Positions 1 to 29,433 of a stretch of DNA of 64,000 nt are shown here, piece after piece. The stretch is from the IMG/VR virus record IMGVR_UViG_3300029309_000005, positions 32,628-96,627 of that record. One strand, given 5' to 3'. How positions within the stretch are numbered: position 1 is the stretch's first letter; each line of letters opens with the position of its first letter. The notes under the pieces are model-generated. The model was not told the origin of the DNA. It was given only the letters and a program-made list of their open reading frames with translations, and ran no database searches. The DNA is from a virus. Both the position numbers and the translations under genes were made by a program.

Positions 1-81
1 CAAAACCCTTATGGGAAACAACAGTTCGGTTTGCCTAATGATAGCAAAGATGAAGATTGATTTCACTTTGGGGTGAACTAG

Positions 82-306
82 ATGTGGCCGTTCTCAACTG
101 CACAAGAGCGACAAACGGAAGCAATGTCGCAAATATTAGCAGAAAACGCATATGAAAGAAAAATGGAGAGGGTTGCTGGATGGGTAAGAACAATTACTGC
201 ACTAATTGGAGGAATCGCTTTGACATTTGGAATTTTATTTGGACTAGAAATCTTAGGAATATCACCTTCAGATGTATGGACTTTTATAACAAGCATAGGA
301 AACTGA
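82..306 (+). CDS. Small membrane protein (1 long hydrophobic segment)
   Basis: Hydrophobic stretch ITALIGGIALTFGILFGLEILGI; SD GGGGTGA upstream. Confidence 0.7.
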   Translation: MWPFSTAQERQTEAMSQILAENAYERKMERVAGWVRTITALIGGIALTFGILFGLEILGISPSDVWTFITSIGN

Positions 307-319
307 AGGGGGTAACTCT

Positions 320-1051
320 TTGTCTGCCTTGATTGCAGGGCATATGCTAATGGCATCAGCGTCTGCACTTTACTCACTTTACAGAATATTACGGCCTTTT
401 CGAGTAGGCATTTATGGCCCATCAATGGTTGGTAAAACAACTTTAGATCAGTATCTCACTGTGCCAGGAGATATTGATCCTATACCTTTTCATTTGAGAA
501 CTGCACATCCTAAAAGTAAAACAGCAACTGGTTATAAAAATCCCTCTGAAACCAGAAAACAGGTTCGTTTAGTCAAGGTCAAAAAGCCAATTACTACAAC
601 AGATATTGCAGGAGATGTGATGTTTCGTAATCTTTGGATAGATGATATGTTTGGTAGAAATGTTGAATTGGTAATGTTCATGGTTGATCATAGGGCAATG
701 ACATCACGACAGTTTGCTATGGATGCTTCTGCTAGTTTGTCATATTTGGTTGATAACATAGTAAAAAAAGACATCAGCAAAAAAATCTCCAGAAAGGCAA
801 AGAAAAATTCTAAAAAATATGTTCCACGCTTATTTTGTTTGATGATAAATAAAATGGATATATGGTGGGATGAACGTGCTGAAGCGTTGTGGTCTTTAGG
901 TTTGCAGAAAGAGCATCCTATCGTTGCACCATTTAGAGATTCGTTAAAACGGTTGAGAAAAGCAGGTATTCGTGCAGAAGTAATGGCAATGTCATCTCAA
1001 CATGGAATTAATGTTGAAAAGAGTTTAATTGCATTATTGGATTCTTTGTAG
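320..1051 (+). CDS. Small Ras-superfamily (Arf/Arl-like) GTPase
   Basis: G1 GPSMVGKT, G3 DIAG followed by FRNLW, strand VMFMVD, G4 NKMD, G5-like MSSQHG; N-terminal hydrophobic/amphipathic helix. Confidence 0.85.
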   Translation: MSALIAGHMLMASASALYSLYRILRPFRVGIYGPSMVGKTTLDQYLTVPGDIDPIPFHLRTAHPKSKTATGYKNPSETRKQVRLVKVKKPITTTDIAGDVMFRNLWIDDMFGRNVELVMFMVDHRAMTSRQFAMDASASLSYLVDNIVKKDISKKISRKAKKNSKKYVPRLFCLMINKMDIWWDERAEALWSLGLQKEHPIVAPFRDSLKRLRKAGIRAEVMAMSSQHGINVEKSLIALLDSL

Positions 1052-2048
1052 GATAACGCTTATGGGGGTGTTAGGCATGGCAGGGTTAATGGCGTGGAAT
1101 CCCCAAGTTCTAAATCCGATGTCATATTTGCCATATCAAAGAGGTCTAAAATTACAAGGACTTGATGATGAGCAATTAAAGTTGGTATCACAGCAAACTG
1201 GCATTTCATATGAGTTATTGAAATCTCAACAACGTGCGGAGATGGCAAGTGCTGGTTCAACTGGAGATATAGGTGAAGAACAACTTATGCCTACTGTTGA
1301 AATACAGTTGAAATCTAATCCTAAAAATCCTAAGAAGGCTAGAAAGCAAAATATCAAGATGCTGAGAAAGGCTTTGAGGCCACCAAATTATAATTTAGGA
1401 TTTTTCAAAATATACCGCTACAATGCAGCGCATGAATGTGCTTGCTGCGGAGTCGATATTCGCAGATTTTTAGAGGGCGATAACGCTTATGCACATATTG
1501 TTGACGAAAGCACCGGACTTTCCTTAGCAGATATTTATTGGTTCGATGAAGAAACTGGAAACGCTAGAAAGCCATTGGCAAGGACTCATGGCGATCACGG
1601 TGATGAAATGAACAGTTCTCTATGTCCTGCACATCTTCACATTTATCATACTCTAAAATCTTTAATTCAAGAGCATGAAATGGCAGAAGAAGGATTTAGT
1701 CGCATTGCTTCAAAAGGAACTAAATTTACCAAAATACCTGGAATGAGTGCTTTGATGAAAGGTAACTCTCCTAAAAATAGAAGCACAGCAGAATCATTGT
1801 TAAAGTATGAGCCATTTTTTGCTATGGTTCACAAAGATGCACAACATAGCAAAGGTGTTCAATTAACACAATTGCCAAATCCTGTAACTGGAGTAGTAGA
1901 TATTGTGCAAGTCACTTTTGATTTGAGAGCATTACAAGCAGAATCACAAATGGCACAAAGAAATGCTATGGCAAACGGCATTTCTATGCAAACTGCTATG
2001 AACGCACAGGCTTTGCCACAACAAGAGGCTACAATTCAACAACAGTAG
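1029..2048 (+). CDS. Hypothetical protein with putative Zn-binding Cys/His cluster and Q-rich tail (likely start 1077)
   Basis: CACC...CPAH motif; long ORF with GGGGGTG SD before ATG 1077. Confidence 0.65.
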   Translation: MHYWILCRITLMGVLGMAGLMAWNPQVLNPMSYLPYQRGLKLQGLDDEQLKLVSQQTGISYELLKSQQRAEMASAGSTGDIGEEQLMPTVEIQLKSNPKNPKKARKQNIKMLRKALRPPNYNLGFFKIYRYNAAHECACCGVDIRRFLEGDNAYAHIVDESTGLSLADIYWFDEETGNARKPLARTHGDHGDEMNSSLCPAHLHIYHTLKSLIQEHEMAEEGFSRIASKGTKFTKIPGMSALMKGNSPKNRSTAESLLKYEPFFAMVHKDAQHSKGVQLTQLPNPVTGVVDIVQVTFDLRALQAESQMAQRNAMANGISMQTAMNAQALPQQEATIQQQ

Positions 2049-2056
2049 GTGATAAT

Positions 2057-2662
2057 ATGGGCTGGTTTAGCAAAAATGACAATACAAGCACACAATTTGG
2101 CTCTCCAACGCAAAATCTGAGTCAAACAAACGGAATGAGCATGGATAATGGCATTTTGGGTATGCAAGCAGCCCAAAACCCAATGATGCAACAAATGGCA
2201 AACGATCCAATTACTGCTACTGCCCGTTTGCTTGAATTAAATGACCCAGTTGCTCAATTTATTGTTTCACAAAATATAGGTTTGCTTATGGATTTGGTTG
2301 GAGAGGTAGTTCGATTATCTATCAAAGAATTCTTTACCAGTATCACCTTTACACAAGCGGAAGATGGTAAAATTACACTTGACCAATCATCATTACCAGC
2401 GTCAATAAATACACTGTCTCCTGAAAATCTAGGTTTGACAATGACAAAACTACAATCTTCTGCACAACAAACTCTTGCTAACAATGCAAACCAAAGGCAG
2501 ATGTTTTTACAAGCACATAATATGGGGATGTCAATGAATCCTCAAACGCAACCAGGGTTCTTTGGTGCGTTGCTAGGTAATGTGCTTGGAAATCAAGTCC
2601 AGCAACAGGGCGGCTTTGGTCAAACTGCTGCAAAAGTAGGAATGGGGGCTGCGGTCTTATGA
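2057..2662 (+). CDS. Hypothetical Q/M/G-rich protein with amphipathic C-terminus
   Basis: AGGTGA SD; PGFFGALLGNVLG and KVGMGAAVL Gly-rich amphipathic segments. Confidence 0.7.
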   Translation: MGWFSKNDNTSTQFGSPTQNLSQTNGMSMDNGILGMQAAQNPMMQQMANDPITATARLLELNDPVAQFIVSQNIGLLMDLVGEVVRLSIKEFFTSITFTQAEDGKITLDQSSLPASINTLSPENLGLTMTKLQSSAQQTLANNANQRQMFLQAHNMGMSMNPQTQPGFFGALLGNVLGNQVQQQGGFGQTAAKVGMGAAVL

Positions 2663-2904
2663 ATGCCAGAGATAAACAACCAGAGCAAGCAAATATCTAC
2701 AATGCCACAGGCATGATTATGAGTCCAAACAAAATGTTAGTTGAAAGTGCTACAATGATTTTTATTATTTCATTTATGCTTGCCATGTTTGTTATGCTTG
2801 TTTGGAGAGGTTCTTCACTTTCATCAACACAAGTTCTGATGGGTGCTTTTGGATTAATTTTTACCTTTGGGATAGCAGTTAGACAATTTGCCTCTTTTCG
2901 GTAG
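2659..2904 (+). CDS. Small 2-TM membrane protein (holin-like topology)
   Basis: Two hydrophobic helices; ATGA overlap with the upstream gene. Confidence 0.65.
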   Translation: MNARDKQPEQANIYNATGMIMSPNKMLVESATMIFIISFMLAMFVMLVWRGSSLSSTQVLMGAFGLIFTFGIAVRQFASFR

Positions 2905-2915
2905 CCTCATCGGGA

Positions 2916-3143
2916 ATGAGGCGGTTTAATCCTCTACCGTATAGTCCTTTGCTGACTAAATTTGATCAAGACGGTGATGGTGATTTTGATTTTGATGATA
3001 TTAAGATAATATTAGGCAAAAAGAAAGAGCAAAAAGAAACTTGTATTGCGATTACAAAATCTGGTAAAAGGTGTAAGCGGCAAGGTAATTTAGATGAAAA
3101 TAACTTGTGTTATACCCATAGAAACTATGACAAAGCCAATTAA
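2916..3143 (+). CDS. Small protein with EF-hand-like loop and C3H Zn finger
   Basis: DQDGDGDFDFDD; CIAITKSGKRCKR...LCYTH. Confidence 0.6.
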   Translation: MRRFNPLPYSPLLTKFDQDGDGDFDFDDIKIILGKKKEQKETCIAITKSGKRCKRQGNLDENNLCYTHRNYDKAN

Positions 3144-3165: not shown

Positions 3166-3873
3166 ATGGCTGGTCGGCAGACACGCAAAAACTGTCCGTT
3201 TTGCCAGCACCCTGAAAGAGATTTACTCGAACAAAAAATCCTAGAAGGTTCATTAGATGTTCAAGACTGTGATAGGCAACATCAATGGGCTGAAGGAACA
3301 ACTCACAGACACATGCGGAGGCATTCTGGAGAATATTACAATAACAGTAATTCTTCATGCCCTATATGCACAGATCCAAATCGTGCAGATATTGAAGCAG
3401 CCATTTTAGAAGGTAGAGCAGGTATAGATGATTTCGCTGTTGAGTTAGGTATTGCTAGTAGCACAGTGTCAAATCACATGGAAAAACATACAAAACCAAT
3501 CATTCAACAACATGTAGATATTCAAGCCTTACCTAATGCTATGAAAACAGTTCATGAGTCGTTAAGTCGTGTTGAAACTAATATGAACCGTTTAGATAAA
3601 TTATTAGGGAGAGTTCTCGATCATGTTGAAAATCAATTTGATGATGAACAAGAGGTTGTTGAAATGCGTGATGTTGAAACTGCATTGAAGGTTCATCGTG
3701 AAGTTCGAGATACTTTAGTTGAGTTAGCAAAATGGATGGAGAAGGCAGAAACCATTGAAGATAAACAATCGGTTTCTATTCTAAACGTATTACAACAATT
3801 TTATTCTGAAAAATCACCCCAAGAATGGGCTGAATTAAAAAAGCGTCTTGTTGCATCGGGGGTGATGAGTTGA
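3166..3873 (+). CDS. Probable terminase small subunit (tandem Zn-binding/HTH repeats plus coiled coil)
   Basis: Two repeats of CxxC-x-[HD]P-x-R..[LI]E..ILEG...HMxxH followed by a helical oligomerisation-like region; upstream of TerL. Confidence 0.5.
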   Translation: MAGRQTRKNCPFCQHPERDLLEQKILEGSLDVQDCDRQHQWAEGTTHRHMRRHSGEYYNNSNSSCPICTDPNRADIEAAILEGRAGIDDFAVELGIASSTVSNHMEKHTKPIIQQHVDIQALPNAMKTVHESLSRVETNMNRLDKLLGRVLDHVENQFDDEQEVVEMRDVETALKVHREVRDTLVELAKWMEKAETIEDKQSVSILNVLQQFYSEKSPQEWAELKKRLVASGVMS

Positions 3874-5850: not shown

Positions 5851-7703
5851 TTGTCATGCCGTTGATTGTTTTAGAAAACTATCTGATTCGTAAAGGGCAT
5901 GGTGTTTTCAATATACATGACTACATCAATGCTTTTCTAGGTAGTAATAATGTTGAAGAAGGTTATGCGTCTTTAATTAACTCGCATCACGATCTCAACC
6001 ATGATAGTTTTGCAGGTGTTGAAGCAGACGCTGTTAAACTTGCATTTGATTTACATTTAGGAGGGCTGACAGATCAAGATAGAGATATTCTAAATGCTGG
6101 AGAGGCAGCAAATCCTACTCTGTGGCATCAAACTTTTCAAAAAGCGGTCAATGCAGGTGCAGAGGAAATCAATAATTCTATCAAAAGACAGAACATGATT
6201 AATGCTGAAAGATCTGCACAAAGCGGAATTCCAACAAGGCAAATACCGTTGGCTTTTGAAAAAGATATGGGAAATTATGTTGCAGTAGCCGCTTGGAGAA
6301 CTCCAGTTTTAGGTAGAAAAGGCGAAGGAGATTTCAACAGTCAAGGTGCTTTGATTACTCAATATGTCAGTAAATTGAATGGTAAGCCGGAAGCATATGC
6401 AAGGCCATATCATAACGGCTTAACAGCATTGAGGCGTGAAAGAGCAGAGCAGATGGGTATTGATTTGAAAGGAGTTCCAAAAGCATCCGATGAAATTAAA
6501 CCTGGGCTATTACACGGAGATACAATCTATATTCGAGATAATAATTTAAGGTCTAAGTTTGCTTTGACTGTTCAAGGAATAAAACAAAGATACCCAAATG
6601 CTAATCCTGAAATGCTTCAAGGTATGGCTTTACAAGCATTGAGAAATCTACCGGAGTTTAACCAGTTTGCGGGTAATTCTCATAGCGATGGGTTACAAAT
6701 AGGAAACTTCTCAGATGCGGCAATGGAGGCTAGAGCCACTGATGAAAGATTCAATCAAGCAGATTCTTATGGTAATTTAATGAACTTTATTCACCCCAAT
6801 ATGAGAAACCATGCTATCAACAACACAACTGGGCATTCGTATTATCACAATGAGAATCCAAGCAAAAAAATGCTTTCAATGTATGAGGAACACTACGGGT
6901 GGGATGAAGAAACATCAAGGCGAGTTCATGAAAATGCTTATTCTGGAAAATATGACGGTGTGGGAATGAATCGTGCTGAAAAATTGATGGCTGCAAAGCG
7001 AGATGAATTGATGGCTGGCGGAAAGCCCCCTGAGTGGGCTGGAGAGGCAATTATGCCTAGAGACTCAGCGATAACATCCCCAGTCGAGCCAGCAGAGCCT
7101 TTGGCTCAGGATAGTCCAACTCCTGCACCGTTAGCAGCCCCTCCCCCTCCTACTACTCCTATTCAAGAGGCTGTATCATTACCCCCTCCTGTTCCTGTTC
7201 GTGCAGATCCACCGCCACCTCCGCCCAACCCAAGTGTAACAGGTGCGATTCCGGTTCCGGTTGCAGAAAAACCGCCTCCGCCCCCTATGCAGACCCTAAA
7301 CACTTATCCCTCAAATGTTCCTCCCTCTCAAAATACGGGGCGAGGCTTTTTGGATAACCTAATGACTAGACTTGGTTATGCGTATGAAACATTATTCCCT
7401 AGTTATCGCAAATCTGAAGATGCTGAAGCATCAGATGTATTGAAGGAAATGCTTGAAAATGTTCAGTTAGAACTCGCTAAGTCAGCACTCCCTTACTCTC
7501 CACTATATCAACCAAATAGTGTTAGAAAATCATCATCCATTGCTTCGATAAATGATGTATCAATGGTCGCTCAAAGAATGAATAGACCAAACTCTGATAT
7601 AATTTCCATATTCCATAGCCGAGGCGATTGGGAGAGTATAGCGAAATCTTTTGGATTGACACATCAAGACGTGCAGTATGTGAAGGTGATTTTTAATGAG
7701 TGA
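5847..7703 (+). CDS. Large Pro-rich hypothetical protein, putative internal virion protein
   Basis: 618 aa ORF with a poly-Pro linker, HTH-like C-terminus and IRKG/YRKS/LAKS/VRKS sites. Confidence 0.7.
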   Translation: MIVMPLIVLENYLIRKGHGVFNIHDYINAFLGSNNVEEGYASLINSHHDLNHDSFAGVEADAVKLAFDLHLGGLTDQDRDILNAGEAANPTLWHQTFQKAVNAGAEEINNSIKRQNMINAERSAQSGIPTRQIPLAFEKDMGNYVAVAAWRTPVLGRKGEGDFNSQGALITQYVSKLNGKPEAYARPYHNGLTALRRERAEQMGIDLKGVPKASDEIKPGLLHGDTIYIRDNNLRSKFALTVQGIKQRYPNANPEMLQGMALQALRNLPEFNQFAGNSHSDGLQIGNFSDAAMEARATDERFNQADSYGNLMNFIHPNMRNHAINNTTGHSYYHNENPSKKMLSMYEEHYGWDEETSRRVHENAYSGKYDGVGMNRAEKLMAAKRDELMAGGKPPEWAGEAIMPRDSAITSPVEPAEPLAQDSPTPAPLAAPPPPTTPIQEAVSLPPPVPVRADPPPPPPNPSVTGAIPVPVAEKPPPPPMQTLNTYPSNVPPSQNTGRGFLDNLMTRLGYAYETLFPSYRKSEDAEASDVLKEMLENVQLELAKSALPYSPLYQPNSVRKSSSIASINDVSMVAQRMNRPNSDIISIFHSRGDWESIAKSFGLTHQDVQYVKVIFNE

Positions 7704-8649
7704 TGATTTAGTATTGAGAGCAAGATTAGTTCAGCAAGGATATTCGGATGATGATATTGTCAAAGTCTTAGGTATGTCACAACTTCCAGGTGGCGGTATA
7801 ACATCATACATTCCAGGTGTTGGGGGAATGTTGCATCGGAAGAAAACTGGAATGTCAAAGGATGAATACAACAAACAAGTTGAAGCAGAAAAGGCTAGAA
7901 AGCAACAAATTGCGAGAAACAGAACAACTGATGCAATTCAATCGAAAGGTGGCATTAACGTATTGAGTTCAGAAGCACCGGCAATGGGGGGAACAGCAAA
8001 TATAGGGGCTGGCAAGCAAACATTTACAGAAATCGGACAACAACAGGTCGAGGCAAATGCACCAGCAGCACCAACACCGGCAGCACCAGCAGCAGCACCA
8101 GCAGCAGCACCAGCACCGGCAGCACCAGCACCGGCAGCACCAGCACCGGCAGCACCAGCACCGGCAGCACCAGAACCAGCAGCAGCAGCACCAGCACCAG
8201 CAACTATGGATGAGAAAGTGCAACAAACAAATCAACAAATGAATCAACAAATGCCACAAGCAGCAACAGTAAACCCTCAAATTCAATCAATGGCTCAACA
8301 ATTCCAAGCAGGACAGGATATGCAAACTCTCCAACAAGGAAAAGGTGCAAATCAACAAACTTATCTTCAAAATCGTTCTGGTGCAGGAAAATTGGCAGAT
8401 GCTCTAACTTTTGGTTTGACTAGAAATATTGGTAGCACAGGTGGAACAGCAAGACGTAGGGCAAACGAACAATCAGCACAGCAAACTAAAAATTACCAAT
8501 CAGCACAGAATCGTATGAATCAAAGAGCAATGGGGATGGCCCCTGTAATGACTTCTTTAGATTCTAAATTATCTGCTTATGCTGATATGCTTTCTATCAA
8601 AAAAGGTGTTCAAGAGCAAAACACTACTGTTAATCTAAGAAGGAGATGA
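7696..8649 (+). CDS. Low-complexity Ala/Pro/Gln-rich protein, putative internal virion protein
   Basis: PAPAA repeats, Q-rich; AGGTGA SD. Confidence 0.7.
   Translation: MSDDLVLRARLVQQGYSDDDIVKVLGMSQLPGGGITSYIPGVGGMLHRKKTGMSKDEYNKQVEAEKARKQQIARNRTTDAIQSKGGINVLSSEAPAMGGTANIGAGKQTFTEIGQQQVEANAPAAPTPAAPAAAPAAAPAPAAPAPAAPAPAAPAPAAPEPAAAAPAPATMDEKVQQTNQQMNQQMPQAATVNPQIQSMAQQFQAGQDMQTLQQGKGANQQTYLQNRSGAGKLADALTFGLTRNIGSTGGTARRRANEQSAQQTKNYQSAQNRMNQRAMGMAPVMTSLDSKLSAYADMLSIKKGVQEQNTTVNLRRR
8058..8203 (+). repeat. Coding tandem repeat (GCACCAGCA/GCACCGGCA units) encoding an Ala-Pro linker
   Basis: Directly visible imperfect tandem repeat. Confidence 0.9.
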
Positions 8650-9961: not shown

Positions 9962-11398
9962 ATGTCAGACGCTTTACAAAAATTGGCAGCCAATGTTGAT
10001 TTTGAAATGGGGCGTAGAGATTTCAAATACTTTTTTGAAGAAATATGTGGCAAATTCGATGAAAAGAATCCTTGGATTTTGACAAAATTTCATCAAGAAT
10101 GGTTTGATTTATCTGAAAACAACAACAAGACTTGTATCGTAGCCAGTCGTGATCACGGCAAATCTGTATTCTATCGTGTGTATCTACTATGGAAAATGGC
10201 ATATAATCCTGGCACAGAAGTCTTATTTTTCTCTCATAGTCAGCACCAGTCAATTGAACACATGGCTAAGATGAATGAATTGATTGAATCAATACCTGCA
10301 TTGCAGCATCTTAAACCAAAAAGAGGTTGGGCAAAGCAGAAGTTCAAGTTCACAAATAAGTCATCAATATCTGCTATGTCTGTTGGTAAAGCGGTTCGTG
10401 GCGCACACCCTCAAATTGTAGTGCTTGACGATATTCTATCTAGCGAAGCGCAAACACAGTTAAAGCATATTTCATCTTGGTTCTATACTGCATTATTGCC
10501 AGTTCTTCACCATACAGCACAATTATGTATTGTTGGAACACCATTTTCATATACTGATTTGTATTCAGAATTAAAAAAACTAAAATCGTATGCTGTTAGA
10601 GAATACCCTGCAATTAATGAGCAAACAGGAGAACCATTATTCCCTGAACGCTGGTCTTTGGATGCACTGAATAATAGAAGAAATGATATGACATCCATAG
10701 CATTTACTAGGGAATATTTGTGTAAGCCGATTGCTAGTGAAGCAAGTTTGTTTCCAGAAGAAGTTCTTGAAAAAGTTAAAGATGAACACTTGTCATTATC
10801 TTATTATCCTCATGACGGTGAATCATACAATTACTACATAGGATGGGATCCTGCAATTTCAGCAGACCGGAGAGCAGATTATACCTGTATGATGGTGATT
10901 GCAGTTGATGAAAATAAAAACAAACATGTTATTCATACACATCATGAAAAAGGAATGGACTTTTCATCACAAATAGATAAAATCATAGAATTGAATGCTA
11001 GATTTAATCCAGTAATTATTGAATTAGAGACAAATAACTTTGCTGTGGCATTCAATCAAGTTCTAAATGAGATTAGCGATCTTCCAATAAAACCATTCAA
11101 TATGAGCCGAATGAAGAAAGAGGCTTTAATTCATACCCTCCAACTGCAATTTGAACAGGGCAAACTAACTTTACCTTACAAAGATGAAGGAGGCACAAGA
11201 AGATTGATGAATACTCTATTAACCGAACTCTCTACGTTCACTATGCTGGATAACGGTAGAATGGAGAGTCTAGGCGGTCACGATGACATGGTTATGGCTC
11301 TTGCTCTAAGTGTTCAAGCAACAAAGGAGTATCGTGATAACATCGTTATACTAGATGCTGACATATGGCAGAATAGACTAGGGTGGGCAAATGTCTGA
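9962..11398 (+). CDS. terL: Terminase large subunit
   Basis: Walker A SRDHGKS, Walker B VVLDD, coupling motif GTP, nuclease motifs IGWDPA and HDDMVMA. Confidence 0.95.
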   Translation: MSDALQKLAANVDFEMGRRDFKYFFEEICGKFDEKNPWILTKFHQEWFDLSENNNKTCIVASRDHGKSVFYRVYLLWKMAYNPGTEVLFFSHSQHQSIEHMAKMNELIESIPALQHLKPKRGWAKQKFKFTNKSSISAMSVGKAVRGAHPQIVVLDDILSSEAQTQLKHISSWFYTALLPVLHHTAQLCIVGTPFSYTDLYSELKKLKSYAVREYPAINEQTGEPLFPERWSLDALNNRRNDMTSIAFTREYLCKPIASEASLFPEEVLEKVKDEHLSLSYYPHDGESYNYYIGWDPAISADRRADYTCMMVIAVDENKNKHVIHTHHEKGMDFSSQIDKIIELNARFNPVIIELETNNFAVAFNQVLNEISDLPIKPFNMSRMKKEALIHTLQLQFEQGKLTLPYKDEGGTRRLMNTLLTELSTFTMLDNGRMESLGGHDDMVMALALSVQATKEYRDNIVILDADIWQNRLGWANV

Positions 11399-12626
11399 AA
11401 GAATAGAGGGAGTTTTAGGTGTTGAGTCGCCCACTGATGTTATACTCAAAATTTTGGATGAACAACTCATTGATGCGGAATTGAAAAACAATGCTCAAGA
11501 AAGAAAACTTCTCGAAACTCAGAAAAAAGTTGCTGCAAAAAAAGGCAAATCGACAGGCGAATCACGTGAAGGTGCTAGTATAGATGGATTAGATGCAGAC
11601 AATCGAGGTGGAGGTGATGTTCAACCAGGAACTGCCGTTCAAACTCAAACATCCCCCATTCCAGTTACAAAGACATGGTTTGTTGATAATTTTGGGATGC
11701 AAGGATCTGAAATGGTTGATTTATTTATGAAATCTGACAAAAGTGAAATTGTTTCAATTATAGAACCGTTGATTATTCAAGAAAGAATTGCTTTATTGAA
11801 ATCATTTCCTTCAGTTTCTCCCGATCTTGTTACTAAAATCCCATTTACTGATTTTGATTGGCAGATGTTACAAAAAAATGTATCATCATTGGAAATACCA
11901 TTTAGAAGATTTGTGAAAAGTTGGAGTGATGGAAATGATTCTGCGTATGATGTTTGGCACAATCGCATTACAAAGGAACAAAGATTAAGTTTGCCAGAAA
12001 GAAAAATATTACAAAAAGCACATGATGTTTTAGAATCTCATGGTAGCATGAATACTCAATCGTTACAGTCGCATGGCGTTAATGGTAGCACTACTAAAAT
12101 TGCCATGTTAATAAAATCACATGGATTTTTGTATGATATTAAGCCACAGGGTAGCGGCTCAAAAAATACAGACAAAGGTTTGTTTTATGGGTTACAAAAG
12201 ATGGATGTTTTCATAAAAGATGCTGGTGCTTTGATTGGCGGGTTATATGAGATGGGAGGGGAAATTGAAATCAGTTCACGTGGCATTCCAAGATTGGTTC
12301 TACCTTTTAGTTCTAACATTCGCAAAGAATATGCCAATGCACTGAATAATGAATTGGGTGTGCGAGGAATTATAGCCGAAGGCAGGGGGCTAGTGATTGA
12401 AGGGGAGATTTCAGTCGCTAAATCAATTGAGTCTGCTTTACCATTTTTGCATGATAAGAAAGGAGAGATTGTTATACTAAAGAAGTCACTAAAAGATGAT
12501 ACTGATGCTTTGCGGTGTTTAACATACTCACAATCTAAGCCTCAGAAACAAGTGTCTTTACTGAAAATGTGGAACATGTCATTAGAATCATTTGAAACTA
12601 TGAAACGAGGTGTGATTGATGGCTGA
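11391..12626 (+). CDS. Protein with wHTH-like domain and degenerate LAGLIDADG-like C-terminal domain
   Basis: ALIGGLYEMGGEIEISSRGIPRL...ELGVRGI...ALPFLHDKK resembles the LAGLIDADG fold but lacks the catalytic acidic residue. Confidence 0.55.
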   Translation: MSERIEGVLGVESPTDVILKILDEQLIDAELKNNAQERKLLETQKKVAAKKGKSTGESREGASIDGLDADNRGGGDVQPGTAVQTQTSPIPVTKTWFVDNFGMQGSEMVDLFMKSDKSEIVSIIEPLIIQERIALLKSFPSVSPDLVTKIPFTDFDWQMLQKNVSSLEIPFRRFVKSWSDGNDSAYDVWHNRITKEQRLSLPERKILQKAHDVLESHGSMNTQSLQSHGVNGSTTKIAMLIKSHGFLYDIKPQGSGSKNTDKGLFYGLQKMDVFIKDAGALIGGLYEMGGEIEISSRGIPRLVLPFSSNIRKEYANALNNELGVRGIIAEGRGLVIEGEISVAKSIESALPFLHDKKGEIVILKKSLKDDTDALRCLTYSQSKPQKQVSLLKMWNMSLESFETMKRGVIDG

Positions 12627-14427
12627 TAAAGAGCGATTAGAACGGCTCTTTTCTGCCATAGGTATAGACATGGAGAGGCATACTACTCCAATGCCAACTA
12701 TGCCTTTGTTCCAGTCTGGAATACAAGAGCCTCCACTTTTACAAGGTATCACAATACCTGCCTTGTATGCTTGCACATTTGAGTGCGTAGTTTTGCGTTC
12801 TATTCTAAATCATTTAGCAGTTGAAACATTTCGTAAAGGGTATGGATGGAAACCAAAGTTTGTTGTAAAGTGTGTTGATTGTAATGAAGTATATCATCAA
12901 GAAGTTGATGCCTGTAAAAAGTGTGGCGGTGAAGTTCGTAAGGCAGACAAAGGCGAATTAGAATATGCTGAAACTTTACTCGAAAGCAAAAATGGAATGA
13001 TGCAAAACTTTGTTGAAATTATGAAAGAAATTGAAATGGACTTAAACATTGTTGATGATGCTTACATTGTTTTGACAAAAGAATACTTCGTTGATCCTGA
13101 TAGCAAGAAGGTTATGTTTTATCGAATAAAAGAAATATCACGTGCAGACCCTATCTTTATGCGTATGCTTGCTGATAAAAGAGGGGTTCGTGGAGGTAGT
13201 CAATACACAAGTTTAGTTGATAGAACCTTCAGAACCAGTGACCCAAAAGATAAGTGTCCTACAACTGGTATGCCAGTAGTGCCAATACATTACATGAACC
13301 TAGCAGGTGTTGGTAAAGGTCAAGTATATACTGAAGGCGAAGTAATACACCTAAGTAAGTGGTCGCCATCTAAACTGTATGGTCGTAGCCCAGTTGCTAC
13401 GATGTGGAGGCAAGTGAACACTTTAATTGCTATGGATAACTATGTTTATTCTGCATATCAAAAGAAGCGTATGCCTAGAGGTGTAATGGTGATTAAATCA
13501 TCCAATATGGAAACTGTTGAAAGAACTGCTAGAAATATACAGGAACACCTTGAGCGTGACCCATCTTACATTCCTACAATTGGTGTTGAAACTGAATCTG
13601 GTAGAGGCGGTCTTGAATATGTCCGTATGATGGACACACTAGAAGAATTACAATATATTCCAATCAAAGACGATATTAGACAAAGAATTGCTGCATTCTT
13701 TGGCGTGTCAAATGTGTTTATGAATGATGTATCTGGAGGCGGTTTGAATAATGAAGGTATGCAGATTGTAGTTAGCAATCGTGCGGTTGCTTATGCTCAG
13801 TCTATTTACAATCGTATTTTATTCCCTCAACTTGTCGAAGCGTTTGAAATCAAAGAATGGGAATTGGTTTTGAACCCGCATGAAGAAGAAGATGAAATCA
13901 TGCAACTCAGGAGAGATGAAATGGCAATACGCAATATGATGCAGATGAAACAAGCAGGTTATGACGCATCATTGAGAGATGGTATTGATGATAAGATTCT
14001 GCACTTTGATTTCAAAGAACCTGATCCGCAGAAAGTGGCTGCTGCTGAAGCAGCACAGGCGGCTGCTGCTCAACAACAGGGAGGTCAAGCCCCTGTTCAA
14101 AAAACGAATGAAATTGATGATGACCCAAGTATGATGTTCAAACGAACTACATTTGATTCAAGTCGGGGGTCTGTGCCTATTAATGCTTCATTGATAACTA
14201 CTGTTGGCACTGATTTGCCACCGCTAAGAACTCAAAGTCAAAACACTAGAAGAAGCGGTGGCTCAAGTCCAGGTATGATTGATCGAGTCGAAGGTGCGCC
14301 TACTGGTGCAGATGTAAAAACCGATAAACGCAATTTGAAATCACCCGCAGAAAAAGCAATTGATGAAAATATACGTCAAAAGGAAAAACGCAATGGTTTA
14401 GGCGAATCAAGGGGTAACAGTCAATAA
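12616..14427 (+). CDS. Portal protein with Zn-ribbon insertion (start ATG 12619)
   Basis: DLNIVDDAY, VIH...LYGRSP, MPRGV, IAAFFGVS HK97-type portal motifs; CVDC...CKKC insert; follows TerL. Confidence 0.9.
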   Translation: MMADKERLERLFSAIGIDMERHTTPMPTMPLFQSGIQEPPLLQGITIPALYACTFECVVLRSILNHLAVETFRKGYGWKPKFVVKCVDCNEVYHQEVDACKKCGGEVRKADKGELEYAETLLESKNGMMQNFVEIMKEIEMDLNIVDDAYIVLTKEYFVDPDSKKVMFYRIKEISRADPIFMRMLADKRGVRGGSQYTSLVDRTFRTSDPKDKCPTTGMPVVPIHYMNLAGVGKGQVYTEGEVIHLSKWSPSKLYGRSPVATMWRQVNTLIAMDNYVYSAYQKKRMPRGVMVIKSSNMETVERTARNIQEHLERDPSYIPTIGVETESGRGGLEYVRMMDTLEELQYIPIKDDIRQRIAAFFGVSNVFMNDVSGGGLNNEGMQIVVSNRAVAYAQSIYNRILFPQLVEAFEIKEWELVLNPHEEEDEIMQLRRDEMAIRNMMQMKQAGYDASLRDGIDDKILHFDFKEPDPQKVAAAEAAQAAAAQQQGGQAPVQKTNEIDDDPSMMFKRTTFDSSRGSVPINASLITTVGTDLPPLRTQSQNTRRSGGSSPGMIDRVEGAPTGADVKTDKRNLKSPAEKAIDENIRQKEKRNGLGESRGNSQ

Positions 14428-20094: not shown

Positions 20095-21492
20095 ATGGCG
20101 AACAGTCTCACCATCGAAACAGCATCTTGGAGTGCTGATGGTTCTGACTTTTTGCTAAAGTCTGCTGGTAGCCAAGGTGAACTATATGTTGCTGGCTACG
20201 CATCAGTTGATATGGTGGATAAGCAGGGAGATAGAATCCCAACATCTGCGCTAAAAAAGGCATTTTCACAATTTATGGATAACAAGGCTTTCAGAAATGT
20301 TCAGTTAGCACATTCTGGAATACAGGTTGGAGAAGTGGTTGCAGACCACACTGATTCTGAAGGCCGTGTTTGGAAATCTGAAGTCGATAATCACGGACTG
20401 TTCGTAGTCTGTAAGATTCGTAACGACATACAAAAAGCACGTGAAGTGCAAAAACAAATTCGCAATGGAGATTTGCGAGCATTTTCGATTGGCGGCCAAG
20501 CCTTATTCCGTGTAAGTAAAACTACACCAGAACTTGGTAGTCATCGTGAAATAACCGATCTTGAGTTACATGAGATTACACTGTGCAAGAAAGGTATTAA
20601 CCCTGAATCGGGTTATACAATACTAAAAATGGAAGGCGATAACGTGAGCAATACCGAAGTATTAGAAGAAATAAAGGCTGGACTTAGCGAAGTTCTAAAA
20701 GAATTGAGTGAGAAGGCTGATGACAAAGAAATGAAAGAAATGAAAGAAATGAAGGAGATGAAACCCTCAAGTCATGGTGACAAAATGTATGCAGAAGATG
20801 ATAAGATGTATGCAGAGGATGATAAGATGATGGGCAAATCTGAAGAAGCCGCCCTTGATTACATCACTACACTTGAGAAGTTTGCACACGATTCCGGTGT
20901 GGACTTGAACGGACTTCGTGACCACTTTGGACTTGAAAAAGCGTATATGCTAGAGCAAGGTCAAGGCGGCTATTCCCACAGGGGTCAAGGCGATGAAATA
21001 GGATCTGGCGAAGATGCAACCGAGCCAGCCTACCCAACTCTCCCAAGTCCTGGTGGCAACCAATATGTCATCAAAGCACCAAATGTAGGAGGTATGAATA
21101 TGAACGCACCAAAAGGAAACCAGAATGTTATCAAACAATTGACCCCTGAAACACTAGAAAAGGGTTACAGAACATATGCAGCACTTAGAGATGAAGAAGC
21201 AGTAAAAGCACTTGTAGAGAAGGAGTGGCAAGACCGCTACCATCAAGAAACTGCACACGCTCTTGAAGTTAGAAAGCAATCCGATGTTGGGCTACAACTA
21301 GATTCCCTACGTGAAGAAATTGCCATGCTAAAATCTGAAAACGCATCTCTACAAAAGAGTGACGTTACACCAACTACACCATCCACCTCCATTCGTGTGC
21401 CAACTCATGAAGAATTCGCACAAATGGGTAGTGACTTGGAAGGCTGGAGAGCAGCAGAGATGCTTGCTCAGAGAGCATTAAGAGGTGAGTGA
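20095..21492 (+). CDS. Prohead (maturation) protease fused to scaffold domain
   Basis: VAGYASVDMVDKQGD, LAH, FSIGG, EITL: HK97/herpes-type protease motifs; acidic coiled-coil C-terminus; directly before the MCP. Confidence 0.9.
   Translation: MANSLTIETASWSADGSDFLLKSAGSQGELYVAGYASVDMVDKQGDRIPTSALKKAFSQFMDNKAFRNVQLAHSGIQVGEVVADHTDSEGRVWKSEVDNHGLFVVCKIRNDIQKAREVQKQIRNGDLRAFSIGGQALFRVSKTTPELGSHREITDLELHEITLCKKGINPESGYTILKMEGDNVSNTEVLEEIKAGLSEVLKELSEKADDKEMKEMKEMKEMKPSSHGDKMYAEDDKMYAEDDKMMGKSEEAALDYITTLEKFAHDSGVDLNGLRDHFGLEKAYMLEQGQGGYSHRGQGDEIGSGEDATEPAYPTLPSPGGNQYVIKAPNVGGMNMNAPKGNQNVIKQLTPETLEKGYRTYAALRDEEAVKALVEKEWQDRYHQETAHALEVRKQSDVGLQLDSLREEIAMLKSENASLQKSDVTPTTPSTSIRVPTHEEFAQMGSDLEGWRAAEMLAQRALRGE
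20725..20829 (+). repeat. Short coding repeats KEM x4 and DKMYAED x2 in the scaffold linker
   Basis: AAAGAAATG tandem plus a 21-nt imperfect duplication. Confidence 0.85.
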
Positions 21493-22642
21493 AATGACAC
21501 AAGGATATATTCGCACAATTGAAGATATGGAACGCTTGTATTACGGTGCAGGTGCAGGAACAAACGCATGGGCATACAGTGGAACAGACTTATTGAAGGC
21601 TGACAATCCCCTAATGTCCTCTACTGCTGGAACATACCAAGCCATTTTTGGTCGTAAAGTATGGTCACAGTTAAATCAAGAATTCAACGCATTTAGCATT
21701 CTGCCAAAGAAGCCTTGGGAGAAATCTGGATGGCGTGTTGTAACTGGTAAGCCAACTGATGCAGTAGGATTGCCAGAAAACGGTGCGCTACCGGATTCCA
21801 CCAAGCCAACATTTGAAGAAGTTGCTACAAAGCCAAAGACAGTCGCAAGCAAATTCGACCTATCTGAAACTGCAATGTTCCTTGCTGACAAGGATGACGG
21901 TCTAGGTGACGCAAGAGCAGTTATCAAGATGGAAATGTCGAAATCTCACGCAGAATCAATTAACAAAATGTTGCTTCGTGATGTAGATACAGTCGCTGGA
22001 AACAACTTTGAATCCATTGATCGTGCTGTTTCATCATCCTTTACTGAGCCAGCATCTTTCGCTGATATTTCAGCACTATCAGACCACAACCAGTATTCTA
22101 TCACCCGTAACTCAACTGGTGCTAACTCTTGGTTCGATGCAAACGTAGATGCTGGAACTGGAGGAACAGAGCGACCATTGACACTGAATGTGCTTGATGG
22201 AATGTTTAGACAAGTTTGGGAACGTGGTGGTCAGCCAAAGGTTATTCTAACTGGCTATGACACTATTGAGAAGATTCAACAACTATTGCAGCCTCAACAA
22301 AGATTTACTGAGATGCAAAGAGTTACACCATCAGTCAACGGAGTGCAAGGTATTCCTGGTATGGAGGGCGGATTCGTAGTAGCAACCTACAACGGTGTGC
22401 CAATTATACCTGCTAAAGATGTTCATGCACCATCTGGTGGACTTTCAAGAATTTACATGCTAGACACAGATTACATGTATTTCTGCACAGCAAAACCAAC
22501 TCTTTACCATGAAAGCGGAATTGAGACTGGCGATCCATTCGGTATCAACAGATTGGGTCAGGTTGGTCTATTCCACACAATGGGTGAACTATGGCAACTG
22601 TTCTATGGCGCACATGGAAAGATTCGTGACCTAAGTGCATGA
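21485..22642 (+). CDS. Major capsid protein, HK97 fold (likely start 21494)
   Basis: Position after the protease; size; ENGALPDSTKPTFEEV E-loop-like region, YNGVPII, IYMLDTDY, GKIRDL; resembles halovirus/Magrovirus MCPs. Confidence 0.9.
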   Translation: MSEMTQGYIRTIEDMERLYYGAGAGTNAWAYSGTDLLKADNPLMSSTAGTYQAIFGRKVWSQLNQEFNAFSILPKKPWEKSGWRVVTGKPTDAVGLPENGALPDSTKPTFEEVATKPKTVASKFDLSETAMFLADKDDGLGDARAVIKMEMSKSHAESINKMLLRDVDTVAGNNFESIDRAVSSSFTEPASFADISALSDHNQYSITRNSTGANSWFDANVDAGTGGTERPLTLNVLDGMFRQVWERGGQPKVILTGYDTIEKIQQLLQPQQRFTEMQRVTPSVNGVQGIPGMEGGFVVATYNGVPIIPAKDVHAPSGGLSRIYMLDTDYMYFCTAKPTLYHESGIETGDPFGINRLGQVGLFHTMGELWQLFYGAHGKIRDLSA

Positions 22643-24942: not shown

Positions 24943-26526
24943 ATGCCGGAGATATTTAATCCAGGCCACAGGCCAAACTCACCGTTATTTCCTGATGAGT
25001 TAGTCTATTGCTCAGTAGATGATGTTGCTAACTTTTTACAATTACCACTACCCGATCCAGTAGCATTGTCTGGAAATTCTTCTATTGTCGGTAGTAATTT
25101 GAAGTTACCAGTATCTGGTGCTAATTATAGAAGATGGAAAATTGAAACAGATGTGTCAATAACAGTATATGATGATGCTGATGCTCTAGGTAAAACCTAC
25201 ACTGTCACTGGTGTCGAAAGCGCAGGTAGTGGTGGCAATGTCAATATAATCGTGACAAAAATAGGTGCTGAATCATTTACAACTGCTAATAATGCAAAGA
25301 TACAAGTCAACAGTGCAATCACAAACAGTAATGAAAGAGGTTTGAAAAAAACACAAGTTGAGGCTTTAATTCGAGAAAAGCAAGATTATATTGATAGTGT
25401 ATGTCGTATGTCTTGGCGACCAACTTTAGTGTCAGACGAGTATCAGAACTTTACAACATTCAAGCCTTATCGAAGGAGATACTATACAGATTATGTTGGT
25501 GCTATCTATTTGCGTAATAGGTCAATCCAACGCATTCTAAGATTATCTGTGTGGCAAGGTGATAAATATAGAGAGTTGGGGTCATCTATCGTAAAACTTA
25601 CTGTAACTGCAACATCAATTGGTGCGTCTGATAAACTGTTTTTATGTCCAGGTGTGCCGCATGTAGCCACATTAACTAGAGGCAAAACTTCGACTACATG
25701 GGATGGCGATTTTGGCAACAAAACAACCGCACAAAATATTGCTAGTCTAATCAATAAAGATAAAGCAACAAGTAGAGGCGACATAGCAATAGGAACATTA
25801 CAAGAAAATGGAAAGCAACTAAATGTTGATAATGAGTTTTTAGCAACTGCAAACAGTGATGAAGGAGATGGAATCATTATTATCTCATCAATGCGGTCAA
25901 CAGAAGAAGGGGAGGATTGCACTATTGCTACTACTAATCCTGATGCCTTTGCATTTTCACTAATGTCAGATCCTCAGAGTAAAATTACTAATGTTGCTGG
26001 TTCAAACTTTACAGTCACTGATGCCAGCACTTTTACCTTGCGTCATGGCTTAGTCTTTTACACGTTAGGGGGCGTTACCTATGTTGCTAGATGTAGTCGT
26101 AATGGAAATACCTTTACTGTTCAAGAGGAATTAGTTGCTGGTTTTACAAGTAATTTGGCACTAGATATTGATATAAAGCAGTTGAAATTGAAAACTGATG
26201 TTATTGATGAGGCTAGACAAAAGGATTGGTGGTCTATGGAGGATAACGGTGCAATTATGTTTAACAACCAATATCCCTTTTATGAAAATCACGCAATCAA
26301 AGTATCATATATTTATGGTGAAAGATACTTGGAAAAGGTAATCAAAGAGGCATGTATCAAATTAGTCTGCATGGATATTTACTTAACCGATGATTATACC
26401 GTTCTATTTCCTGAAGGAACATCAAACATTGATTTGAATGCTAAAGTTCAAAAATTAGATGAAGAAGTAAAGAGAATGTTGATACCGTATCAAGAGACAA
26501 TAATAGTTGCTGGCATGGGTGGTTGA
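24943..26526 (+). CDS. Head-tail adaptor with large insertions
   Basis: N-terminal YCSVDDVA, IDSVC..SW and C-terminal VSYIYG...IKEACIKL are SPP1 gp15/HK97 gp6-like hallmarks. Confidence 0.75.
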   Translation: MPEIFNPGHRPNSPLFPDELVYCSVDDVANFLQLPLPDPVALSGNSSIVGSNLKLPVSGANYRRWKIETDVSITVYDDADALGKTYTVTGVESAGSGGNVNIIVTKIGAESFTTANNAKIQVNSAITNSNERGLKKTQVEALIREKQDYIDSVCRMSWRPTLVSDEYQNFTTFKPYRRRYYTDYVGAIYLRNRSIQRILRLSVWQGDKYRELGSSIVKLTVTATSIGASDKLFLCPGVPHVATLTRGKTSTTWDGDFGNKTTAQNIASLINKDKATSRGDIAIGTLQENGKQLNVDNEFLATANSDEGDGIIIISSMRSTEEGEDCTIATTNPDAFAFSLMSDPQSKITNVAGSNFTVTDASTFTLRHGLVFYTLGGVTYVARCSRNGNTFTVQEELVAGFTSNLALDIDIKQLKLKTDVIDEARQKDWWSMEDNGAIMFNNQYPFYENHAIKVSYIYGERYLEKVIKEACIKLVCMDIYLTDDYTVLFPEGTSNIDLNAKVQKLDEEVKRMLIPYQETIIVAGMGG

Positions 26527-27220: not shown

Positions 27221-27230
27221 GGAATGAAAG

Positions 27231-29402: not shown

Positions 29403-29433
29403 TAATGAGGCTTTAATATAAAAAAAAACATGG

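Follow-up and report, generated by a model that had tools for sequence, protein, structure and literature searches.

A virus-specific small GTPase resembling Arf lies in a conserved cassette of membrane protein genes in magroviruses

Magroviruses encode a predicted small GTPase of a virus-specific family that resembles Arf, and its gene is fixed in one order with five neighbors (g0, g1, g3, g4 and g5; Table 1) across all sampled magrovirus-like clades. The virus studied here is a magrovirus, a ~97-kb tailed virus of Marine Group II ocean archaea. It is represented by the 96.6-kb record IMGVR_UViG_3300029309_000005, of which positions 32,628 to 96,627 (64,000 nucleotides) are referred to as the window. 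Magroviruses reportedly rank third in abundance among surface-ocean virus groups, behind SAR11 phages and cyanophages (PMC5434244). For tailed archaeal viruses, a 2024 review called the egress machinery "still completely uncharacterized" (PMC10791045), and no description of this cassette was found in the literature searched. A conserved virus-specific Arf-like switch combined with small membrane proteins provides a concrete gene set for the question of how tailed archaeal viruses exit their hosts. Magrovirus hosts are uncultured. The cassette genes can be tested in vitro or by heterologous expression, for which host culture is unneeded. We tentatively suggest that the cassette is a virus-made, membrane-associated GTPase switch that may time and execute membrane disruption for virion release.

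The cassette is composed of genes for an RHH regulator, a protein with one or two transmembrane (TM) segments, a 1-TM protein, the GTPase, a Cys/His-cluster protein, a Gly/Gln-rich protein, a 2-TM protein and a Zn-ribbon protein, in that order. The five open reading frames (ORFs) from the 1-TM to the 2-TM protein are located where the original prediction had placed them. All five are preceded, at a distance of 6-7 nt, by a GGGGTG-type ribosome-binding site, which supports the TTG-320 start of the GTPase and the ATG-1077 start of g3. The suspected extension of the operon to the left is real and consists of two genes that begin beyond the window, RHH and g0. Upstream of the RHH gene, no stretch longer than 11 nt has a second copy elsewhere in the genome. 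Neighboring genes overlap or are separated by intergenic gaps of ≤25 nt all the way from the RHH gene to the portal gene. The cassette is thus the head of a gap-free, same-strand run leading to the terminase, portal, protease and capsid genes. It had been described as lying just upstream of the packaging genes; the actual distance is ~7 kb, with seven other ORFs in between. This gene order suggests late expression of the cassette. A scan for sigma-70 promoters and intrinsic terminators gave results at or below chance with bacterial models, which are not applicable to an archaeal host.

Table 1. Genes of the cassette, elements of the GTPase and g3, and downstream genes. Positions refer to the window unless marked "genome" (the full record).
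Feature	Position	Strand	Description
RHH gene, 48 aa	genome 32111-32257		Outside the window; overlaps the start of g0
g0, 145 aa	genome 32250-32687; 3' end = 1..60	+	Two TM segments, Gln/Arg-rich tail
g1, 74 aa	82..306	+	Conserved N-terminal cytoplasmic segment (MWPF..T..ER..EA...ILAEN), then one TM helix
Small GTPase, 243 aa	320..1051	+	TTG start; virus-specific family resembling Arf/Sar/SRbeta/Rag
GTPase N-terminal amphipathic helix, residues 2-24	323..391	+	Predicted model; matches the N-terminal helix of full-length Arf1 and Arl3 structures on superposition
GTPase G1/P-loop GPSMVGKT, residues 33-40	416..439	+
GTPase long switch-I region, residues 45-76	452..547	+	T-x-PG-x5-P...RT-x-H signature; low confidence in the model
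GTPase G3 and switch II DIAGDVMFRNLW, residues 95-106	602..637	+	Asp99 where most relatives have Gln
GTPase basic insertion, residues 148-167	761..820	+	Lys/Arg/Ser-rich; before strand 5
GTPase G4 NKMD, residues 177-180	848..859	+	Guanine-specificity motif
g3, 323 aa from ATG-1077	1077..2048	+	ORF 1029/1077-2048; Cys/His cluster
g3 C-P-x-H-L-H-x-x-H motif, residues 183-191	1623..1649	+	Invariant
g4, 201 aa	2057..2662	+	Gly/Gln/Met-rich
g5, 81 aa	2659..2904	+	Two hydrophobic segments, the second weaker; start overlaps g4 stop
g6, 75 aa	2916..3143	+	EF-hand-like acidic loop and small Cys/His finger
g7, 235 aa	3166..3873	+	Two invariant CxxC pairs; bounds the cassette
Terminase large subunit	9962-11398		Downstream of the cassette
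Portal	12616-14427		Downstream of the cassette

The neighbors of the GTPase are co-conserved. Their order and strand are kept in 79/79 related IMG/VR loci, as well as in four loci that are even more distant (L084-L087), and the gene order holds across clades in which GTPase identity falls to 36%. g3 is present in all 79 loci and g7 in 78. By tblastn, g4 is found in 61/79 loci and a g0 orthologue in 51/79; by position, g4 is found in every locus inspected and g0 in 8/8 distant loci inspected. More than 120 protein clusters are homologous to the GTPase, almost all on viral contigs of ~100 kb. Among 121 Poseidoniales genomes, the one clear homologue was on a related 106-kb contig within a single-cell genome. 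Small Ras-like GTPases were expected to be unusual in prokaryotic viruses, and this is what the searches returned. The GTPase has no match in PHROGs, and tblastn against 50,697 GenBank phage records found no match for the GTPase, g3 or g7, with terminase as a positive control matching 1,679 of the same records. The viral structural look-alikes of the GTPase in BFVD are all from giant viruses of eukaryotes, whose Rab, Ras and Ran proteins (e.g., mimivirus Rab, PDB 5xc5) are likewise virus-encoded small GTPases.

The product of the GTPase gene is very probably a genuine GTP-binding small GTPase, judging from its motifs and predicted fold. The small-GTPase motifs (GxxxxGK[ST], DxxG, NKxD and an SA[K/Q]-type G5) are all present in canonical order, as G1 (G33-PSMV-GKT40), G3 (D95-IAG-D99, with W106), G4 (N177-KMD180) and G5 (S225-SQ). 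Among 30 family members with identity down to 25%, G33, G38, K39, D95, G98, N177 and K178 are invariant; T40 and D180 are ≥90% conserved, and W106 is kept in 116/117 full-length relatives. The AlphaFold2 model (pLDDT 83.7) has a predicted small G-domain fold, and a Foldseek search with it gave at least 500 small-GTPase matches. The original reading of this ORF as a small GTPase is upheld.

The Asp that the original prediction reported at the catalytic Gln position is also confirmed, as D99. Of 117 full-length relatives, 77 have Q after DxxG, 21 have D, 13 have E and 4 have H, and Asp is therefore a trait of this clade and not of the GTPase family. With Asp at this position, GTP hydrolysis may be slow, partner-dependent or differently done. 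The switch-I region is estimated to be ~15 residues longer than that of Arf. It includes an R60-T61 pair that is invariant in a 25-sequence alignment, and an R-T pair lies between G1 and G3 in 114/117 full-length members. T61 is the candidate switch-I Mg2+-binding Thr (G2) and is located in a long loop of low model confidence (pLDDT 46-62). To our knowledge, the basic insertion has no equivalent in Arf, Rab or Ras.

The N-terminal helix of the GTPase is amphipathic rather than transmembrane. Its hydrophobic moment is about 0.4-0.67, and its 19-residue Kyte-Doolittle (KD) maximum is about 1.0-1.3 in most members, where the usual cut-off for a TM segment is 1.6. Only two members exceed this threshold: P0156 (1.78), an outlying member with a truly hydrophobic N-terminus, and P0077 (2.12), in which the high value is located in a likely N-terminal extension. 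The hydrophobic N-terminal helix first noted in this protein is Arf-like, as proposed, but its hydrophobicity is below the TM level.

The nearest sequence and structure neighbors of the GTPase are supported to be Arf, Arl, Sar1, SRbeta and Rag, from profile searches and the predicted model. A profile search against PDB sequences gave as its top match GerdArfR1 (8oun, E 1.6e-5), an Asgard Arf protein (bioRxiv 10.1101/2024.02.28.582541), followed by Arl8A/B, Rab33B, Arl6 and Arf1. Arf is the commonest Pfam family in a tally of 30 members (20/30, all weak, best E 2e-4), with weak matches to SRPRB in 7/30 (best E 0.021) and to Gtr1_RagA in 4/30. In a structure search independent of Foldseek, covering 48,161 chains, an Asgard RagA-like protein scores 13.8, Arf6 13.5, SRbeta 13.2 and Sar1 13.1; the first Rab scores 11.3. 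The best profile and structure matches taken together are Arf proteins (Arf1, Arf6, Arl1, Arl8, Sar1 and the Asgard ArfR, PDB 8oun/8oum). In hhalign alignments, Arf-like and Ras-like references cannot be told apart (97.5%, E 5e-12 versus 97.2%, E 3.8e-11). The basis for the Arf-like call is therefore the PDB profile search together with the Pfam tally and the structure rankings.

Membership in the Arf family was considered and rejected. The window GTPase does not match Pfam Arf (PF00025) at E≤1 and passes no curated family threshold, including those of PF00025 and SRP receptor beta (PF09439). Precomputed Pfam assignments are blank for 119/120 homologous clusters, and among 30 members NCBIfam gave solely the generic small_GTP model, in 17. 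In a tree with a small reference set from one Asgard genome, the viral clade (SH-aLRT 98) is its own long branch and is not nested in Arf/Arl/Sar; Asgard Arf, Rag-like and Ras-like proteins form a group (SH-aLRT 93) that excludes it. Since no curated threshold is passed and the branch is separate, the proteins are a virus-specific family resembling Arf and not members of it. The original Arf/Arl-like label is thus kept in part: the protein belongs to the Ras superfamily rather than to a non-Ras P-loop family and is closest to Arf, Arl, Sar1, SRbeta and Rag, but does not fall inside Arf.

The viral family shares with Arf the G1, G3, G4 and G5 motifs. Its switch II consensus is DIGGQxQFRNLW (D-x-G-G-Q-x-x-F-R-x-L-W), with a near-invariant Trp, and agrees in part with the Arf signature DxGGQxxxRxxW: the sequence in the window protein is DIAGD, in which Asp replaces Gln, and Arg103 is not conserved in distant clades. 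The viral proteins also differ from Arf in their longer switch-I with its own conserved signature, in the basic insertion of ~20 residues, in an extra helix after NKxD and in a SAQ/SSQ-type G5. The viral GTPase has no myristoylation site because residue 2 is Ser, and it lacks the C-terminal roadblock domain of Rag/Gtr1. Membrane-active Arf-like GTPases were until recently seen as a hallmark of eukaryotes and have since been found in Asgard archaea. The viral GTPase comes from a virus whose archaeal host is not an Asgard archaeon, and would extend membrane-active Arf-like small GTPases to such viruses.

The two larger partners, g3 and g4, are soluble orphan proteins and candidate new GTPase regulators. 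g3 has a basic N-terminal helix with an invariant K-A-R and invariant C121, C183, H186, H188 and H191. Its C-P-x-H-L-H-x-x-H motif and C121 are likely to form a metal site. No known fold was found for g3, for which the best ESM Atlas score of 0.77 is under the meaningful level. Modeling the GTPase in complex with g3 (residues 24-305) gave a score of 0.00, which weighs neither for nor against an interaction. g4 has an MGWF-type N-terminus, a Gly/Gln/Met-rich low-complexity stretch, a helical core and a Gly-rich, hydrophobic C-terminus (GFFG-x-LLG). The Zn-ribbon protein g7 has invariant C10, C13, C65 and C68, several invariant His residues, a weak HTH signal and a C-terminal half that is helical. 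Neither PHROGs nor Pfam returned a match for the small membrane proteins g0, g1 and g5. A hydrophobic segment with KD ≥1.7 occurs in seven of 109 greedy ORFs in the whole genome; g0, g1 and g5 are three of these and lie within 3.3 kb. In the same stretch, two more are either borderline or an artefact caused by a long start.

The GTPase probably acts at the membrane together with its neighbors, given its helix and the conserved linkage. GTP binding would free the amphipathic helix and bring the GTPase onto the host cytoplasmic membrane, as in Arf and Sar1. Helix release is an analogy and not an inherited property, because the tree places the family outside Arf. The membrane-bound GTPase would then organize or gate the small membrane proteins, with g3 and/or g4 as a GAP- or GEF-like regulator or an effector. 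Membrane disruption would in this way be timed and executed, and virions would exit from a host that has no murein wall. The cassette would thus stand in for the holin-type lysis genes that head a late operon. A role in egress, the likeliest of those considered, is a tentative assignment. The fuller picture, in which tailed archaeal viruses share a GTP-timed release machine and the GTPase triggers the membrane proteins to rupture or vesiculate the membrane, is doubtful. If true, a virus group that is among the most abundant in the surface ocean would have a GTP-timed alternative to the bacteriophage holin clock.

In phage lambda, the lysis genes head the late operon, before the terminase genes. 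The magrovirus cassette resembles the holin cassettes of tailed phages (e.g., lambda S-R-Rz) in having clustered, translationally coupled 1-TM and 2-TM proteins that head a run to the packaging genes. It differs in having no recognized endolysin or spanin and no holin match in PHROG or Pfam, and in carrying a GTPase and two large orphan proteins. The original prediction saw no endolysin-type gene in the window, and in the entire 96.6-kb record four common endolysin Pfam families (Amidase_2, Phage_lysozyme, Peptidase_M23 and Glyco_hydro_25) were not found. No holin system known to us includes a small GTPase. A holin-endolysin cassette was therefore rejected as an identity for these genes, which have no recognizable member of those four endolysin families or of a PHROG or Pfam holin family and share only the topology of small 1-2 TM proteins. 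Small TM proteins are not specific to lysis, a point against the egress reading.

The same structural and synteny evidence would fit internal membrane remodeling, that is, budding or tubulation for a replication or assembly compartment, or the shedding of vesicles as decoys or for the export of host factors, comparable to membrane vesiculation by ArvA or COPII/Sar1. This explanation is unlikely, though a precedent exists in the Euryarchaeota. In Haloferax, ArvA is a small GTPase with an N-terminal amphipathic helix that acts on a euryarchaeal membrane and drives vesiculation, and it has two operon partners, one a Zn-ribbon protein (PMC10927574). ArvA is thus a functional counterpart of the viral GTPase in Euryarchaeota. 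Like the ArvA/ArvB/ArvC system of Haloferax volcanii, the viral cassette joins a helix-bearing small GTPase to operon partners of which one is putatively Zn-binding, and the invariant Cys/His cluster of g3 adjoins the GTPase. Common to ArvA and the viral proteins are the N-terminal helix, the P-loop and a switch-I stretch resembling I-P-x-E-x-R-T (hhalign 95%, E 3e-8), but this alignment covers 78 N-terminal columns and ends at G3. The viral family is distinct from ArvA: each forms a clade of its own in the tree, and in PDB searches ArvA, which has D-M-P-G, matches Der/Era/TrmE, whereas the viral family matches Arf. The OapB/ArvB domain (PF09846) has no match in the 96.6-kb genome, with positive Haloferax and Methanosarcina controls, and none was found in the 121 Poseidoniales genomes searched. 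A Pfam scan of 18 g3 orthologues and the window g4 found neither OapB nor DUF2072 at E≤1. The viral cassette also adds three membrane proteins. An identity with the Arv system was therefore rejected, the GTPase not being of the ArvA type and the OapB and DUF2072 partners not being detected. Moreover, internal remodeling has against it that we know of no report of tailed viruses requiring internal membranes.

A role in assembly or packaging is quite unlikely. Here the GTPase would be a soluble switch for head assembly, scaffold release or packaging, and the membrane genes would be incidental neighbors. The cassette runs without interruption into the morphogenetic genes and is equally tightly conserved, the Zn-ribbon and HTH features of g7 fit a DNA-recognition, small-terminase-like role, and the strongly basic insertion of the GTPase could bind nucleic acid. 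However, this explanation does not account for the conserved amphipathic helix and the three interleaved membrane proteins. The GTPase is also outside the common head-assembly toolkit, because none of the 50,697 GenBank phage records matches it despite related terminases.

Superinfection exclusion or takeover of the host envelope is improbable. The membrane proteins would alter or block the receptor or DNA entry, with the GTPase as a regulator; phage exclusion systems typically use small membrane proteins, and the RHH regulator at the start of the cassette could permit separate control. Such genes are usually variable accessories, whereas the order of the cassette is conserved to 36% GTPase identity. 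None of ten cassette proteins scored above noise in PADLOC, and the position at the head of the structural run suggests late expression. Least probable is an SRbeta-like targeting factor, an N-terminally anchored GTPase that would aid the insertion of viral membrane proteins: the SRPRB matches and the hydrophobic N-terminus of P0156 speak for it, but those matches are very weak, the helix is below TM hydrophobicity in all members but P0156 and P0077, and no SRX-like partner was recognized.

The position of g6 is a variable slot. A g6 gene is present in 18/79 loci, and other clades carry other small Cys-rich ORFs at this position.

The viral GTPase carries a full motif set, with the P-loop at residues 33-40, DIAGD at 95-99, NKMD at 177-180, and SSQ at 225-227. 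Residues G33, G38, K39, D95, G98, N177, and K178 never vary among 30 aligned relatives reaching as low as 25% identity, and W106 almost never does. All originally proposed ORF positions were borne out. A GGGGTG-type ribosome-binding site is found 6-7 nt upstream of each cassette ORF, which favors TTG at 320 as the GTPase start and ATG at 1077 over TTG at 1029 for g3, the gene that follows the GTPase. The replacement of the catalytic Gln by Asp, as noted from the sequence, is real in this protein but is limited to its clade and is not family-wide. Among 117 full-length relatives, this position is occupied by Gln in 77, Asp in 21, Glu in 13, and His in 4, the last being the residue found in Sar1.

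An N-terminal helix is the feature that defines Arf membrane binding (bioRxiv 10.1101/2024.02.28.582541). The viral protein is of the GTPase type and possesses an Arf-like helix, placed at residues 2-24 in the predicted model. This helix pairs with the N-terminal helices of full-length Arf1 and Arl3 in structure alignments. Across the family, the hydrophobic moment of the segment is high (0.4-0.67), and its 19-residue hydropathy maximum (~1.0-1.3) lies below the usual transmembrane threshold, two outlying sequences excepted.

Three lines of evidence agree that the nearest group is Arf/Sar1/SRbeta/Rag/G-alpha. When the family profile was searched against PDB sequences, the top match was the Asgard Arf protein GerdArfR1 (8oun; E 1.6e-5), followed by Arl8A/B, Rab33B, Arl6, and Arf1; the best-aligned stretch was strand 3 and switch II. 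Thirty members scanned singly against Pfam gave matches that were all weak, with Arf matched by most (20), then MMR_HSR1 (16), Roc (11), Ras (7), SRPRB (7), and Gtr1_RagA (4). Profile-profile comparison did not separate Arf/Rag-like (97.5%, E 5e-12) from Ras-like (97.2%, E 3.8e-11) sets, both drawn from one Asgard genome. Maximum-likelihood phylogeny sets the viral sequences apart as a well-supported clade of their own on a long stem, outside the Arf, Rag, and Ras group and separate from ArvA, the GTPase of the Haloferax vesiculation system. The Arf/Arl-like reading draws support from the PDB profile and Pfam matches; the tree does not place the family inside Arf. Because the profile sets are unseparated and the clade lies outside Arf, Rag, and Ras, the protein is termed Arf-like and not an Arf. 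Compared to Arf, it has a longer switch-I region bearing its own conserved signature, a ~20-residue basic insertion ahead of strand 5, an additional helix past NKxD, and Ser at position 2.

The family is virus-specific. A word-indexed search with the GTPase returned 125 clusters, most from contigs of 60-117 kb, and 293 loci were confirmed in IMG/VR. An exhaustive search of 1.84 billion representatives yielded just 60 proteins at E<=0.001 and reached no cellular GTPase family at that threshold. Among 121 Poseidoniales genomes, the sole clear match was a viral contig in a single-cell genome; a second genome gave a P-loop match only (30 residues, E 0.008). Since these host genomes hold no clear cellular homologue, recent capture of the gene from the host is excluded. 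The sole viral structural look-alikes found in BFVD are giant-virus Rab, Ras, and Ran proteins. JGI automatic annotation names a few family members 'GTPase SAR1 family protein'. No GTPase is mentioned in the main text of the accessible magrovirus papers or in the supplements of one of them, and further full-text searches returned nothing relevant.

Conservation of the neighboring genes was assessed in 79 related loci by tblastn with the proteins of this genome, and in 14 of these plus 4 more distant loci by ORF position. The neighbors are kept, in a fixed block on one strand: RHH, g0, g1, GTPase, g3, g4, g5, a variable Cys-rich ORF, g7, g8, and g9. The GTPase is therein linked to small membrane proteins and to two orphans, and the cassette heads a gene run containing the structural genes. 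By tblastn, g3 is present in 79/79 loci and g7 in 78/79. In the most distant clade, the small membrane proteins are missed by tblastn yet are present by position and topology. The suspected leftward extension of the operon was also confirmed, with the RHH gene followed by a two-TM g0. An 81-nt gap precedes the RHH gene, and beyond it lies a gene on the opposite strand; between the block start and the portal gene, intergenic gaps stay at or below ~25 nt and overlaps are frequent.

Coordinates of the cassette and other features of the viral record
Feature	Window	Whole record	Strand	Description
Chaperonin, thermosome-type		6313-7938 (L002 6313-7938)	minus	Cpn60_TCP1, E 1e-131; left of window
Five consecutive ORFs		25515-28369 (L001 5515-8369)		near-identical start peptide
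Large upstream ORF 1		28573-29886 (L001 8573-9886)		P-P-C-Q
Large upstream ORF 2		30234-31520 (L001 10234-11520)		D-P-P-Y
RHH		32111-32257		~48 aa (48 here); opens block
g0	ends in 1-60			1-2 TM; 143-216 aa; 262 aa in one distant locus
g1	82-306			1 TM; ~75 aa
GTPase	320-1051		+	243 aa
g3	1077-2048			~300-340 aa; 252 aa in one distant locus
g4	2057-2662			~200-228 aa
g5	2659-2904			2 hydrophobic segments; ~85 aa
g6	2916-3143			75 aa
g7	3166-3873			~235 aa
Terminase large subunit	9962-11398
Portal	12616-14427
Prohead protease	20095-21492
Major capsid protein	21485-22642
Membrane protein ORF	30513-31937			474 aa
Direct terminal repeat	63900-63997	1-98 and 96527-96624		98 bases

Strongly hydrophobic segments occur in only 7/109 non-overlapping ORFs of the whole genome, and g0, g1, and g5 are three of the 7. 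The g4 protein starts with MGWF/MGLF, continues through a Gly/Gln/Met-rich stretch and a helical core, and is Gly-rich and hydrophobic at its end. In this genome the variable slot holds g6, which has an EF-hand-like acidic loop (D-Q-D-G-D-G-D-F-D-F-D-D) and a small Cys/His finger with weak DUF5763 and zf-primase matches; other small Cys-rich ORFs take the slot in other clades. With two invariant CxxC pairs and weak HTH signals, g7 may be part of the packaging genes instead of the cassette. Three distant relatives encode an extra ORF of 65-67 aa between the GTPase and g3 (locus L084, 1951-2148; L085, 3708-3911; L087, 5767-5964), which we take to resemble an AbrB/SpoVT-type swapped-hairpin DNA binder.

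The nearest functional precedent for the cassette is ArvA/B/C of Haloferax. ArvA, a small GTPase whose N-terminal helix is amphipathic, is needed to form extracellular vesicles; its gene lies with those of OapB/ArvB and ArvC, a Zn-ribbon protein (PMC10927574). An ArvA alignment was built from a homologue adjoining an OapB gene in an Asgard genome. The viral family aligns with it from the N-terminal helix to G3 only (95%, E 3e-8, 78 columns), and within these columns the two share an I-P-x-E-x-R-T-like motif. ArvA itself groups with Der, Era, and TrmE, and in the tree it is a clade separate from the viral GTPases; OapB was not found in the viral genome or the 121 Poseidoniales genomes searched. 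Given the partial alignment, these groupings, and the OapB result, the resemblance is one of architecture, not family.

No endolysin-type gene had been visible originally, and a search for four common endolysin families found none in the genome. Virion release is our tentative choice for the cassette's role, held at clearly less than an even chance, because the host lacks murein, the position is like that of lysis genes heading a late operon, and no other candidate is visible. With no murein to degrade, membrane disruption should suffice for release. The GTPase would bind membranes in a GTP-dependent manner and act on or with g0, g1, and g5, and g3 or g4 may regulate it. Internal membrane remodeling or vesiculation, for which ArvA is the precedent by architecture, seems fairly unlikely. 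An assembly or packaging factor, encoded at the head of the structural gene run, is unlikely, and superinfection exclusion, also part of the original prediction, is more doubtful still. An SRbeta-like insertion helper, as the SRPRB matches might recall, is improbable.

The window spans bases 32628-96627 of one viral record of 96,627 bases, whose part upstream of the window also encodes a UvrD-like helicase. Chaperonins in tailed archaeal viruses of ~100 kb are the signature of magroviruses, which infect Marine Group II archaea, and the thermosome-type chaperonin would assign this virus to magrovirus group A or D (PMC5434244). IMG/VR lists the record as linear and lacking end repeats, in contrast to the direct terminal repeat found here. 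As the same 98 bases stand at both ends, the record is probably complete, with the repeat pointing to a genome that is complete, terminally redundant or assembled as a circle, of the kind reported for magroviruses. A GTPase copy with 54% identity on a 106-kb contig of the Poseidoniales single-cell genome AG-422-I20 supports a Marine Group II host. In public genomes, the magrovirus cassette is also found on short contigs (8-16 kb) inside bacterial and unrelated archaeal MAGs, placements that probably reflect misbinning; as to the host, the 106-kb single-cell contig alone is informative. Loci L082, L084, and L087 are from Parvibaculum and Maricaulis MAGs, L085 is from a Promethearchaeati MAG, and L086 is from a Methanobacteriota MAG.

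Elsewhere in the record, the genome's only large membrane protein, with six strongly hydrophobic segments, is encoded among the presumed tail genes. Five consecutive ORFs left of the window open with a near-identical peptide (MTAFD[QT]AW..[LMV]K or MNAFDIAW..VK) and are then wholly divergent. Just upstream of the cassette are two large ORFs whose translations bear methyltransferase hallmarks: the first is a candidate C5-type and the second a candidate N6/N4-type DNA methyltransferase.
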